48,830 nucleotides of DNA from Corallococcus sp. AB045 (GCF_003668895.1 NZ_RAWN01000061.1:1-48830), one strand, 5' to 3'; shown: positions 34,586 through 39,369, counted from the stretch's first letter. Made by a program: numbers and translations. The notes: a model not told the origin generated them from the letters alone.

Positions 34586-37309
34586 TCAGTGCCGCTCCGG
34601 GGCAGACCGGGCTTGCGCCAGTCCCTCCACCAGGAACAGCCGCGAAAGCGCTTCGTTGTAGCTGTATGCGTAGGACCTTCCGTCCTCGGAGATCGCCAGC
34701 GTCATCACGGAGATGAGGCCCGGCTTGATGCCTCCCGCTGGAAGGGTCAGGTGCGGTGTGCTTACGCCGGTTCTCACGTCGACCCTGGAGACGCGCACCG
34801 GGAGCGAGACGCTTCGCAGATAGAGCGCCGTTCCGCTCGCGTCCCAGCCCGCCACCCATTGATCCGTGAACCGGCCGGGGACGGTGCCTTGCGCCTCACC
34901 CGTCTGGGAGAACAGGCGGAGGCTTCCCTCCGCGTCCACGGTCGCGAGGCGGAGGCCATCGGGTGAGATGACCGTGTGGAAGCCCGTGCCTTCCTCCGTG
35001 ATGGGCCTGGGGGCTCCGGCGCCGGGTTCGAAGACCCAGAGCCGGGCAGGACGTCCCTCTTCGTGCGCGCGCAGGAGCAACCGCTTCCCATCCGGGAACC
35101 AGCGCGCCGTGAGCACCGTGGTGACAGGAGCGAGCGACAGCGACCGAGGCTCGCCCGCGCCCGTGGGCAGCAGCAGGAACTCCATCTGTTCGCCGTAGCG
35201 CACCAGCAGCACCTGCTTGCCGTCCGGAGACAGCGCCATGGGGATGCCGTCGCCCAGGCGGATCGGTGGGGCGCCATCGGAGGTGCGCAGATAGGCGCCG
35301 TAGGTGGGGCCCTCCACCTCCGCGCCCTCGGTGAAGAGGAAGGTCCGGCCATCGCGGGACATGTCCGTCATGAACGACGAGTCCGACCACGTCAGGTCCC
35401 GCTCCGTGCCCGCGTGCCCGAACGCCAGCCCCGTGCGGATCACCGGGTGATCCACCAGGACGGAGCCGTCCTGGGAGATGTCATGCAGCACCATCCGCCC
35501 GGCGATCCGATCCACCGGCCGCGTCGTGCCGCGCAGGTCGACCGCGAACAGCTCGGAGTCCGCGCCTGTACGCGAGGCGGTGAACCACACCTCGCTTCCA
35601 TCGGGAGACCACGCCAGGCCCCGGATGCTCGCCCAGTCCGACGAAAGCTCGCGGGGCGGACCGTCCTTCTCCAGCACCCAGACCCCGCCCCGGTCGTCCT
35701 TGGGATGCGCATGGAACAGGAAGGCAATGCGCGCTCCGTCGGGGGAGACGCGTGCGTGGCTGATCCATCCCTGGGACTCGAAGCGCACCGTGCCGGGGGG
35801 CTGCTCCAGCCGGAAGTTCTCGCCCACGCGGCGCACCACCGCGAGCGGTCCATCCGCACGTCCCCAGTCCGCCTCCAGCACACCATCGAGCACGGCCCGG
35901 GGCGCGCCGCCCGCGAGCGGCATCAAGCCGAGCGTCCCGCTGCCATGCTCGGCGTCGAAGAACCGGGGCTCGAGCAGCACCGCCAGCTCCCCCTTCGAGG
36001 ACGCGGCGAGCACATCCGCGTGCTGCCCCAGCGGTTGTGACAGCGGACGCTCCGTGCGCGCGCTGTAGAGCTCCGCGGGTCCTCCCTCCCACGCCGCGCC
36101 ATAGAGCAACGTGTGTCCGTCCGCGGAGAACCGGGCGTTGAGCACGTGGCCCCGGCGGAACGTGACGGGGCGGTACGTCGGGCGTGAGGACTGCGCCGTC
36201 GGCACCGCCGGCCTGTGTCCGAACGCCAGGAAGCCACCCACGACAGACAGCAGCACGGCCGCCGCGGCCACCCACAGGGCAGGGCGTGGGAACACTCCGC
36301 GCCGCAAGGCCAGGGGCGCACCACGAGCCGCGATGGACTCCAGGGCGAAGGCCAGGTCCTGCGCGGACTGGAACCGTTCGCCTGGATCCTTCGCCAGACA
36401 GCGAGCAATCACCGTCCCCAGCTCTCCCGGCAGCACGGGAGGCGCATCGCGGAGCGCGGCGCTCATCCGCTCCACCGGGCTGTCACCGCCAAAGGGAGCA
36501 CGGCCGCTCACGGCCTCGTAGAGCACCGCGCCGAGCGAGAACACATCCGCGCGAGCATCCACGCCCTGGCCGCGGATCTGCTCCGGAGCCATGTACCCGG
36601 CGGTGCCCACCACCGCGCCGCTCTGGGTGAGCGAGGCGTCCTCGATGCGCTCGGTGAGCCGGGCCAGCCCGAAGTCGAGGACCCGCGCGCTGCCGTTCGA
36701 GCACAGGAAGATGTTCGCGGGCTTGAGGTCGCGGTGGATGACGCCACGCGCGTGAGCGGCCGCGAGCCCCTGTGACAACTGGATGCCCAGCCGCAGCGCC
36801 TGCTCCGGCGGCAGCGGCCCACGCATCAGCCGCGCCCGCAGGGTGCCCCCCTCCAGCCACTCGGTGACGAGGTACGGCACGTCCTCGTGGGTGCCCACGT
36901 CGAACAGGGTGAGCAGGTGGGGATGGGACAGCGCGCCCGCCGCGCGGGCCTCCTGTCGGAAGCGGGCCAGGCGCTCCGCGTCCTGCGCGAACCGGAGCGG
37001 GAGCACCTTCAAGGCCACGTCCCGTCCCAGCCGCCCATCGCGAGCCCGGTACACGTCCCCCATCGCGCCACTGCCCGCATGGTCGACGATGACGTACGGC
37101 CCCACCTGCTCCCCAGGAGCGAACGAGCGGGGTGCAGGAGCCGCTTCCGCGAGCCGGCCCTCCGCGTGCCACGTCGCCGCGACGGCCGCGAGCAGCGACC
37201 CGCAGGAATCGCAGCGGGACAGGTGCGCCTCCGCGAGGACGCGCTGCTCATGCGGCAGGCGGTCCTCCACGAAGGCGAGAATCGTTTCCTCGGAGGGACA
37301 TCCCGACAT
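34586..37309 (-). CDS. Ser/Thr protein kinase (907 aa) with an N-terminal anti-sigma-factor-like zinc finger (zf-HC2), one TM helix and a C-terminal TolB/WD40-like beta-propeller.
   Basis: N-terminus HLSRCDSCGSLL (H-x3-C-x2-C). Kinase motifs VIHRDLKPANIFL, DFGLAR, GTAGYMAPEQ. TM segment LWVAAAAVLLSVVGGFLAF. The C-terminal half has PD40-like repeats. Confidence 0.85.
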   Translation of the reverse strand: MSGCPSEETILAFVEDRLPHEQRVLAEAHLSRCDSCGSLLAAVAATWHAEGRLAEAAPAPRSFAPGEQVGPYVIVDHAGSGAMGDVYRARDGRLGRDVALKVLPLRFAQDAERLARFRQEARAAGALSHPHLLTLFDVGTHEDVPYLVTEWLEGGTLRARLMRGPLPPEQALRLGIQLSQGLAAAHARGVIHRDLKPANIFLCSNGSARVLDFGLARLTERIEDASLTQSGAVVGTAGYMAPEQIRGQGVDARADVFSLGAVLYEAVSGRAPFGGDSPVERMSAALRDAPPVLPGELGTVIARCLAKDPGERFQSAQDLAFALESIAARGAPLALRRGVFPRPALWVAAAAVLLSVVGGFLAFGHRPAVPTAQSSRPTYRPVTFRRGHVLNARFSADGHTLLYGAAWEGGPAELYSARTERPLSQPLGQHADVLAASSKGELAVLLEPRFFDAEHGSGTLGLMPLAGGAPRAVLDGVLEADWGRADGPLAVVRRVGENFRLEQPPGTVRFESQGWISHARVSPDGARIAFLFHAHPKDDRGGVWVLEKDGPPRELSSDWASIRGLAWSPDGSEVWFTASRTGADSELFAVDLRGTTRPVDRIAGRMVLHDISQDGSVLVDHPVIRTGLAFGHAGTERDLTWSDSSFMTDMSRDGRTFLFTEGAEVEGPTYGAYLRTSDGAPPIRLGDGIPMALSPDGKQVLLVRYGEQMEFLLLPTGAGEPRSLSLAPVTTVLTARWFPDGKRLLLRAHEEGRPARLWVFEPGAGAPRPITEEGTGFHTVISPDGLRLATVDAEGSLRLFSQTGEAQGTVPGRFTDQWVAGWDASGTALYLRSVSLPVRVSRVDVRTGVSTPHLTLPAGGIKPGLISVMTLAISEDGRSYAYSYNEALSRLFLVEGLAQARSAPERH

Positions 37310-37339
37310 GGTGGGACGCGACTCTAGGATTGTTCGCGC

Positions 37340-38302: not shown

Positions 38303-38379
38303 GGGGCTTTCCTCGGTGAGGCCCGGAAGGGGCCTTTCGACGCCCTGACACCGGCCGGGAAATCCCTTGCAGCGAAAGT

Positions 38380-39369
38380 TCAGCCCCCCGGACCGAGCAG
38401 CCGCGTCAGGCTGAGGTCCACCTGGCTCACGACCAGCGCCGCGATGCTGTCCACCGAGGACGCGCCCACCCCCAGGCGTTCGCAGAGCCGCCGCGTCGTG
38501 GCCTCCGCCACCTGCTCCCGCGCGCGGCTGAGCCACCGCGACACCGTGGACATGTGGACGCGGTAGAGCGCCGCGATGGCGTCCAGCGACAGCGACTCCA
38601 CGTGGTACAGGCGCATCAGCGTGCGGTCCCGGTCGGACATCTCACCCAGCGCCGTGCGCACGGCCTCCGTGAAGGCCTCGCGGTACCGCGAGCGCAGGTG
38701 TTCGAGCTCTGGCCCCAGTTGCTCGCCGAACGCGGACTCGACGGAGTCCTGCGCGGCGGAGTCGGCCCGGGCTTCGGAGCGCTTCAGGTTGAGCGCGATG
38801 CGCAGCGCAGCGACCCGCACCCAGCCGCCCAGCGCGCCGCCGCCGGTGAACTCTGAAAGCTTCGGCTCACAGCCGGCCGCCGCCGTGAACAGCTTCTCCC
38901 GGAGCGCCTGCCGCACCTCCGCCACGAACGCGGGCGAGCGGTCCACGCCGGACACGAACGCACCGACGTCGCGGAGATAGCCGTCCTCGAAGAACTGGAG
39001 CGCGGCGCGGTCATGCCGCAGGCACCCGGAGGCCAGGTACAGCTCCGAGAAGGCAGGCGAGGCCCCTTCGAGCGCCTCCAGGAGCGCCGTCTGGGACGTC
39101 AGCCGCTGCGCGACGAACGCCACGAAGGCGAGCGGCTCCAGCTCCACCCCGGGCCAGCGCGACCGGGCGCGGTCGAGCGACGCACGGAGCAGCTCCTCCA
39201 GGCGCGAGGGCTCCGGAAGCGGAGCGGGCGCGCGGCCAGGAGCCGCGAGAAAGGCGGAGGCCAAAGGAGTGGGCGCGGGGGACACGCCCGGGACGCTACC
39301 ACCCCCACCGGGCGGACGAAGGCCACCGTCCGCCCGAGCCCACGTTGCTGGTGACCCCCGGAGTTCCAC
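38380..39369 (-). CDS. ECF-type sigma-70 family factor with N-terminal extension. The start is uncertain.
   Basis: Region 2-like [17 protein letters not shown]...[17 protein letters not shown]. Region 4 [37 protein letters not shown]. The first ATG is at 39369, but a downstream GTG/TTG start is possible. Confidence 0.7.

Follow-up and report, generated by a model that had tools for sequence, protein, structure and literature searches.

A 48,830-nucleotide stretch of Corallococcus sp. AB045 (NZ_RAWN01000061.1; hereafter the window) carries on its minus strand the genes for an extracytoplasmic function (ECF)-type sigma factor of the TIGR03001 family, a lipoprotein, and a 907-residue membrane protein in which a predicted zinc-type anti-sigma (ZAS) domain precedes a Hanks-type Ser/Thr kinase domain, a transmembrane helix and a propeller. 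Across Myxococcota, we found proteins of this ZAS-kinase design to be tightly linked in inheritance to sigma factors of the TIGR03001 family. Signaling by ECF sigma factors and signaling by Hanks kinases are usually regarded as distinct systems; here, a predicted anti-sigma module and a kinase form one protein. Based on the sequences and on structural models, we consider it moderately probable that this one membrane protein acts as both anti-sigma factor and receptor kinase for the co-encoded sigma factor, in what would be a tether-and-phosphorylate operon. The window kinase is 97% identical to a protein of Corallococcus sp. AB038B annotated merely as a serine/threonine-protein kinase, and the locus is an ordinary member of a large unannotated family; its interest lies in the architecture at the level of that family.

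The predicted zinc-type anti-sigma module and the kinase

The N-terminus of the kinase contains the zinc-ligand motif C4-x24-H29-x3-C33-x2-C36, which includes HLSRCDSCGSLL and fits the ZAS pattern [H/C]-x23-26-H-x3-C-x2-C. All four ligands are invariant in 13 aligned homologues. The ~60 extra N-terminal residues are confined to myxobacterial homologues of the kinase-propeller body, and HxxxCxxC was present at the same position in all 22 assessable myxobacterial homologues. As a control for chance occurrence, we searched for the motif ahead of the kinase domain in ~65 acidobacterial-type homologues without the N-terminal module and found it in none. This control drew on 120 homologue sequences, 12 of which failed the regular expression for the glycine-rich loop (G-loop) and were left unassessed.

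Profile searches placed the module among anti-sigma domains (ASDs). The window copy scored 16.6 bits against Pfam zf-HC2 (PF13490) as part of the full protein and 21.0 bits as an isolated N-terminus, compared with the 22.2 bits of the gathering threshold (GA). Each of the 13 aligned N-termini matched zf-HC2 (best E 5.8e-7), and 7 of 10 scanned paralogous ZAS-kinases exceeded GA with scores of 22.5 to 33.1 bits. When a profile of the 13 N-termini was run against all PDB sequences, the only matches at E < 0.01 were the anti-sigma factors RslA (3hug, E 7e-4) and DdvA (8rlz, E 1.2e-3). An AlphaFold2 (AF2) model of the N-terminus has helices at residues 7-14, 20-32 and 34-50, with a predicted local distance difference test score (pLDDT) of 92-95 in the core. 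Comparison of this model (a 67-residue query) with 350,542 PDB chains using Foldseek returned, as the 12 nearest folds, exclusively ZAS anti-sigma factors bound to ECF sigma factors (RslA, RsiW, ChrR and DdvA; query-normalized TM-score, TMq, 0.51-0.67), with E-values that were not significant. An earlier note on this DNA, made from its sequence, had read the N-terminal CxxC as a zf-HC2 finger and had set a profile search as the test; the family-wide matches and the ZAS-only nearest folds bear this identity out, with the window copy marginal.

What the earlier note had not anticipated is the reduced size of the domain. In class I ASDs, helix 1 contacts sigma4 and helix 4 contacts sigma2.1/2.2 (PMC7406223). 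The model of the window ZAS has no helix 4 (AF2, DSSP): helix 3 is followed by a proline-rich linker at residues 51-72 (pLDDT 65-72) and then by the kinase domain, in the place where helix 4 would stand. Residues 1-50 are accordingly best described as a predicted zinc-type ASD reduced to a three-helix bundle. Across the paralogues the first ligand is mostly Cys and is His in L049, L054, L060, L069 and L072; this C/H swap is a substitution expected at a metal site and one that belongs to the known ZAS ligand pattern. The zinc motif is found in about half of membrane-bound ASDs and is thought to be structural there (PMC7406223). By analogy with membrane-bound RsiW, zinc most likely has a structural role in this domain, and a redox-sensing role is less likely.

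The remainder of the protein is built as the earlier note had described it, with the finger joined to a Hanks kinase, one transmembrane helix and a PD40 propeller. Pkinase (PF00069) matched residues 73-316 with an E-value of 2.9e-46, and the catalytic motifs are all intact (G-loop GSGAMGDV at 79, VALK with K101, HRDLKPAN at 192, DFG at 212 and APE at 241), from which the domain is predicted to be active. The sole 19-residue Kyte-Doolittle window above 1.6 in the 907 residues lies at about 343-363 (PALWVAAAAVLLSVVGGFLAF). Beyond it, PD40 scored 32.2 bits (GA 20.9), the C-terminal 540 residues gave weak matches to TolB in the PDB (E about 2e-6), and homologues carry precomputed PF26549/PF26550 (Tricorn_N-like) annotations. 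Assignment as a TolB equivalog was rejected, as TIGR02800 scored 30.5 bits and requires 343; the similarity is at the level of PD40 repeats and TolB-like in fold class only. The kinase-transmembrane-propeller body is shared by > 7,700 proteins at E < 1e-20, mostly ~855 residues long and from Acidobacteria, which begin straight at the kinase domain without a ZAS. Some acidobacterial homologues (P0048, P0062, P0068, P0081, P0091, P0095 and P0098) carry instead of the ZAS another conserved N-terminal extension of ~70 residues, with the consensus ERWQxIKxLLxxALxxxPxxRxAFLxxACxGDxxLRxEVESLIxxHEQ.

Co-inheritance of the ZAS-kinase and the sigma factor

Whether the sigma factor is conserved together with the kinase had been named beforehand as the second test of the locus, and co-conservation holds from both sides. 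Starting from the kinase, the order sigma gene, middle gene, ZAS-kinase gene was found at 6 of 6 diverse loci with ZAS-bearing homologues (from Pendulispora, Archangium, Aggregicoccus, a Myxococcaceae metagenome-assembled genome (MAG), a JGI contig and Polyangiaceae). By contrast, there was no sigma gene near ZAS-less acidobacterial kinase homologues (0 of 2 loci). Starting from the sigma factor, we scanned one genome for each GTDB species by pattern and tblastn and obtained 80 sigma-family loci spanning Corallococcus, Myxococcus, Hyalangium, Archangium, Anaeromyxobacter, Kofleriaceae, Nannocystaceae and Polyangia, in which ZAS and kinase domains were called with hidden Markov models (HMMs) built in this analysis. 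Both domains were present in one open reading frame (ORF) near the sigma gene at 59 of the 80 loci, and at 64 when motif-only cases were included; in the five additional loci the kinase is preceded by an HxxxCxxC that falls below the ZAS-HMM threshold. The 59 ZAS-kinase genes lie downstream on the same strand (40), divergently and directly upstream (14) or upstream on the same strand (5). Most (54) flank the sigma gene directly or one gene away, and 5 lie 2.8-4.5 kb upstream. HxxxCxxC is present in every one of the 59, and several of the 15 negative loci are truncated contigs. Few of the remaining kinases at these loci carry a ZAS (about 1 in 10, by inspection). Finally, the distance matrices of sigma versus ZAS and of sigma versus kinase correlated with r = 0.86, a value reached in 0 of 2000 permutations (Mantel test). 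For comparison, genuine ECF/anti-sigma pairs have r = 0.82 and negative controls 0.5-0.6 (PMC7406223).

These data bear on the alternative that the three genes are unrelated neighbors and the CxxC arose by chance. The sub-threshold zf-HC2 score of the window copy would be in keeping with such a coincidence, but the invariant ligands, the co-occurrence at 59 to 64 of 80 loci across Myxococcota orders in three gene arrangements, and the scarcity of ZAS domains in other kinases of the same loci are not. We consider this explanation vanishingly improbable and, in effect, already refuted.

The correlated divergence also bears on how the sigma factor might be released. In the classical membrane anti-sigma scheme, the ZAS would sequester sigma, site-1/site-2 cleavage of the receptor would release it, and the kinase would serve other substrates. 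Proteolysis is the commonest ECF mechanism for single-pass ZAS anti-sigma factors, such as RsiW and DdvA (PMC7406223, PMC11506125), and the receptor has the single transmembrane helix and large periplasmic domain that this scheme calls for. However, a folded kinase domain of 270 residues stands between ASD and transmembrane helix in every family member, and its co-divergence with sigma speaks for a kinase that acts in the same pathway. Moreover, the kinase-side neighborhoods that we read contained no conserved protease gene. We therefore view release by proteolysis as distinctly unlikely.

The sensor regions of the sigma-linked kinases are diverse. About half of the partners have a propeller; among ten non-propeller partners that were scanned, nine carry arrays of tetratricopeptide repeats (TPRs) and one (L049) carries T2SS-T3SS_pil_N repeats. 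Sigma/ZAS-kinase loci thus comprise at least three sensor types and three gene arrangements, and the ZAS-kinase arrangement has undergone repeated duplication, coupled to different sensors. Against a library of 1.84 billion proteins, the ZAS profile matched 4,988 representative clusters, and 29 of the best 149 are ZAS-kinase fusions. A ZAS-TPR-kinase from Myxococcus has > 6,000 homologues under generic names only, with the full motif ahead of the kinase in 89 of the best 120.

Two further observations emerged from these searches. Some metagenomic kinases, among them P0181 (1310 residues) and P0214 (1125 residues), carry three to five tandem ZAS repeats before one kinase domain, so that a single kinase might tether several sigma factors. 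In addition, the only non-myxobacterial relative of the sigma factor that we recovered, in a Gemmatimonadetes MAG (L083, 6052-7247), is followed by a ZAS match without a kinase domain and looks like a conventional sigma/anti-sigma pair.

The sigma factor, the middle gene and the locus

The sigma factor matched TIGR03001 (Sig-70_gmx1, 'Myxococcales family 1') with 231 bits (cutoff 154.6) and TIGR02937 (sigma70-ECF) with 56.3 bits (cutoff 42.9). Pfam detected Sigma70_r4_2 (E 1.8e-9) and did not detect Sigma70_r2 in the window sigma or in any of the 58 homologues found. The AF2 model (pLDDT 87.8) nonetheless matched both domains of sigmaE, AlgU, SigH, SigK and SigW as its top Foldseek hits, with probability 1.0. 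Beyond the two domains there are extra helices at residues 7-72 and, conserved in the family, at residues 275-297. The best-conserved serines of the protein, S280, S287 and S292, lie in this C-terminal helix and are Ser or Thr in 89-95% of sequences. A universal phospho-acceptor in region 2.2 was considered and rejected, as S117 (DRSP), next to this region, is Ser or Thr in just 60%. The acidic pair of region 2.2 is Asp or Glu in 86% and 100% of the family at its two positions and reads A-E in the window copy.

The last feature sets the family apart from the ECF43 sigma factors, in which the acidic DAED is replaced by Ser/Thr (PMC8999054). We rejected an assignment to ECF43, since region 2.2 keeps its acidic residues and the system includes a ZAS; the only shared feature is the adjacent Ser/Thr kinase. 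An ECF43-style mechanism could still operate if the kinase only phosphorylated sigma and the zinc finger did not bind it, serving instead as an autoregulatory, dimerization or redox module of the kinase. EcfP/PknT and EcfK/PknS provide direct precedents for sigma phosphorylation (PMC8999054, PMC13147305), and the absence of helix 4 from the ASD of the window kinase is readily accommodated. Several findings argue otherwise: the sequence and fold comparisons of the N-terminal module all point to sigma-binding ZAS domains, the module tracks the sigma gene exactly (6 of 6 loci with it, 0 of 2 without), ZAS and sigma have diverged in step as bona fide ECF/anti-sigma pairs do, and the sigma family keeps the acidic residues that ECF43 members lack. 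On this evidence we regard phosphorylation without sequestration as unlikely.

The longest ORF of the sigma gene begins upstream of the probable start. The block GGTGGTAGCGTCCCGGGC, present as one exact copy in the window, is conserved together with the GTG that follows it in Corallococcus orthologues that have differing upstream genes, and several orthologues are annotated at 301 residues. The true start is therefore probably GTG 39285, not 39369. The block may be a ribosome-binding region, a promoter-proximal element, or the -10 element of a near-leaderless transcript. An autoregulatory ECF promoter of the form GGAAC-N15-19-CGT occurs at 39330-39365, overlapping the GTG of the longest ORF, and was rejected as a family feature because only 7 of 86 upstream regions contain it, compared with 3 for the opposite strand and 2.6 for shuffled sequences. 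The earlier note was thus right about an ECF-type sigma factor with an N-terminal extension, although the extension is ~28 residues shorter than it had assumed and is accompanied by the conserved C-terminal helix.

In the middle gene, translation almost certainly begins at ATG 38302, within the longest ORF; the product then starts with MRVSSWLSVVTLAATVSAC, has a lipobox (LAATVSA-C19, read from the sequence), and is 320 residues long. It exceeded GA for SGL (27.2, GA 26.3), NHL (24.6, GA 20) and SSL_N (23.4, GA 18.9). Its PDB sequence matches are NHL propellers, namely Pizza designs, the PknD sensor (1rwi, E 2.9e-10) and the SodC-propeller 9m58. The proposed SGL-family periplasmic lipoprotein is therefore present but is better termed an NHL-type propeller, and it is not universal in this slot. 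Propeller-type ZAS-kinase operons have an NHL lipoprotein there at 13 loci. A second subfamily of 18 loci (L002:4762-5955, L004:3913-4950 and 16 others) has a different conserved protein of ~400 residues with a GFSRG motif, whose alpha/beta-hydrolase Pfam matches are all sub-threshold, and some arrangements have no middle gene at all. Because the slot varies or is empty between subfamilies, the sequences identify sigma factor and ZAS-kinase as the conserved core and the middle gene as a subfamily-specific third part, acting as a co-sensor or output.

All three co-directional minus-strand ORFs lie where the earlier note had placed them (Table 1), in a window of ~70% G+C. The sigma and lipoprotein genes are separated by 77 nt and the lipoprotein and kinase genes by 30 nt, and a scan of 34400-39500 found no sigma-70-like promoter or intrinsic-terminator-like site, which is weak evidence at high GC. 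With short gaps and no such internal site, the arrangement is consistent with one transcription unit.

Table 1 Features of the sigma/lipoprotein/ZAS-kinase locus, in window coordinates.
Feature	Coordinates	Strand	Details
Block GGTGGTAGCGTCCCGGGC	39286..39303	-	immediately 5' of the probable sigma start codon; conserved in Corallococcus
Sigma gene (ECF-type, TIGR03001)	38380..39285	-	301 aa from GTG 39285; longest ORF 38380..39369, 329 aa
Lipoprotein gene	37340..38302	-	320 aa; NHL/SGL-type six-bladed beta-propeller; longest ORF 37340..38536
Receptor gene (ZAS-kinase-transmembrane helix-propeller)	34586..37309	-	907 aa
Predicted ZAS (zf-HC2) anti-sigma domain	37160..37309	-	aa 1-50 of the 907-aa kinase; profile, model
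Hanks-type Ser/Thr kinase catalytic domain	36362..37093	-	aa 73-316; Pkinase E 2.9e-46
Transmembrane helix PALWVAAAAVLLSVVGGFLAF	36221..36283	-	aa about 343-363; Kyte-Doolittle
PD40/TolB-like (Tricorn_N-like) propeller region, extracytoplasmic	34589..36202	-	aa about 370-907; PD40 32.2 bits

Genes for a flavin reductase and an Fe/Mn superoxide dismutase (33383..34513, plus strand) converge on the kinase gene, an adjacency that is not conserved in other species. Together with the intact HxxxCxxC, these neighbors could suggest that the ZAS is a thiol or oxidant switch like RsrA or ChrR and frees sigma under oxidative stress without involvement of the propeller. We rejected the oxidative-stress link through sodB and the flavin reductase on account of the unconserved neighborhood. 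The structural role ascribed to the zinc motif in membrane-bound ASDs (PMC7406223) also speaks against a redox or zinc sensor, which would in addition leave unexplained why the kinase is conserved and the periplasmic sensors vary, and we judge it very unlikely.

Elsewhere in the window, a plus-strand gene (41214..43490) encodes a 758-residue bacterial homologue of Major Vault Protein (MVP_shoulder, E 4.8e-45) that also matches the Vault, Vault_2, Vault_3 and Vault_4 repeats. Genes at 108..11590 (plus strand) and 22715..33329 (minus strand) are suggestive of a phage-tail-like or contractile-injection-type cluster. They encode a 1290-residue protein that combines a Tail_P2_I baseplate domain with kelch repeats, a 2537-residue DUF6519/beta-helix protein, an 813-residue AAA+ ATPase with a winged-helix domain, and a giant protein of 2713 residues whose sole Pfam match is one Annexin repeat (E 1.2e-21).

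A proposal for sigma switching and its relation to known systems

Starting from the observed architecture, intact residues and co-inheritance, we infer, in line with the coupling that the earlier note had suggested, that periplasmic sensing is linked to both sequestration and phosphorylation. At rest, the ZAS bundle would bind sigma, probably with sigma4 as the main contact, as for helix 1 of class I domains, and hold it at the membrane. The kinase domain would replace the missing helix 4, and the short flexible linker would put its active site near sigma2 and the segment that joins sigma2 to sigma4. The kinase would be activated when the propeller, perhaps jointly with the NHL lipoprotein, senses a periplasmic cue; phosphorylation of sigma, of the ZAS-kinase linker or of both would then release or activate the sigma factor. 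The released or activated sigma would transcribe its regulon, probably including its own operon.

Several observations weigh against this proposal. The window's own ZAS is sub-threshold in Pfam (16.6 and 21.0 bits against a GA of 22.2), and the Foldseek E-values of so small a domain are not significant. A three-helix ASD without helix 4 may be too weak a binder to inhibit. Because the family keeps the acidic pair of region 2.2, the sigma factor does not look intrinsically inactive in the way that ECF43 sigma factors are. Finally, there is no obvious universal phospho-acceptor in sigma2, where S117 is the candidate; the conserved serines sit in the C-terminal extra helix.

More broadly, and tentatively, ZAS-kinases and their TIGR03001 partners may constitute an unrecognized class of receptors that has expanded widely in Myxococcota and unites anti-sigma factor and kinase in one polypeptide. 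Each genome would have several pairs, with propeller, TPR or pilN-like sensors and the kinase domain in the place of helix 4, and sigma would be freed or activated by phosphorylation, not by proteolysis. If tethering and phosphorylation are indeed combined in this way, they would represent a new way of switching an ECF sigma factor, would explain what dozens of unannotated kinases do in each myxobacterial genome, and would assign a regulator to the uncharacterized TIGR03001 family. The resulting sensor/kinase/sigma cassettes would be compact and probably orthogonal parts for synthetic circuits. With three genes, four zinc ligands and one catalytic lysine, the system is easily testable.

We found no description of a ZAS-Hanks-kinase fusion or of a TIGR03001 regulator in the literature, our coverage of which was incomplete, so that a prior mention is possible. 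The main texts of the ECF classification describe no kinase-associated group with a fused ZAS, and homologues of the window kinase and sigma factor, like those of the Myxococcus ZAS-TPR-kinase, have generic database names only. ZAS/ECF pairs, kinase-activated ECF sigma factors, and PknB acting in trans on ZAS anti-sigma factors are each known singly; here, the predicted anti-sigma module and the kinase share one polypeptide.

The closest relatives of the N-terminal module are the class I ZAS domains (RslA-SigL of M. tuberculosis, RsiW-SigW of B. subtilis, ChrR-SigE of R. sphaeroides and DdvA-DdvS of M. xanthus). The window protein shares with them the motif [C/H]-x24-H-x3-C-x2-C, a predicted N-terminal bundle of three helices in a single-pass membrane protein, and co-encoding and co-divergence with an ECF-type sigma factor. 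It differs in that the sigma2-binding fourth helix is missing, a complete Hanks kinase domain follows the bundle before the transmembrane helix, and the partner belongs to the atypical TIGR03001 family with its extra N- and C-terminal helices.

The kinase-activated ECF sigma factors (ECF43, with EcfP/PknT of V. parahaemolyticus and EcfK/PknS of X. citri, and groups ECF59-62, 217, 267 and 283) likewise have the sigma gene beside that of a Hanks receptor kinase which crosses the membrane once and whose periplasmic sensor varies; PknS even has TPR arrays, as do paralogues of the window kinase. However, kinase-associated groups are reported in the main ECF reclassification as typically lacking anti-sigma factors (PMC7826278), whereas the window kinase itself carries a predicted one, and the acidic DAED missing from region 2.2 of ECF43 sigma factors has its counterpart in the acidic pair kept by the window family.

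In M. tuberculosis, phosphorylation of RshA and RseA by the Hanks receptor kinase PknB frees an ECF sigma factor from its ZAS anti-sigma factor (PMC8999054, PMC13147305), the step that is proposed here. The mycobacterial kinase and anti-sigma factors are separate and unlinked, and the kinase is pleiotropic; here, one polypeptide would be dedicated to the neighboring sigma factor. PknD of the same organism is also a receptor kinase with a beta-propeller sensor linked to sigma-factor regulation (PMC1847690), and it is the six-bladed NHL sensor propeller of PknD that the window lipoprotein matches. Unlike PknD, which acts via an anti-anti-sigma homologue and has no fused ZAS, the window system has its NHL propeller in a separate lipoprotein and a PD40/TolB-like sensor on the kinase itself.

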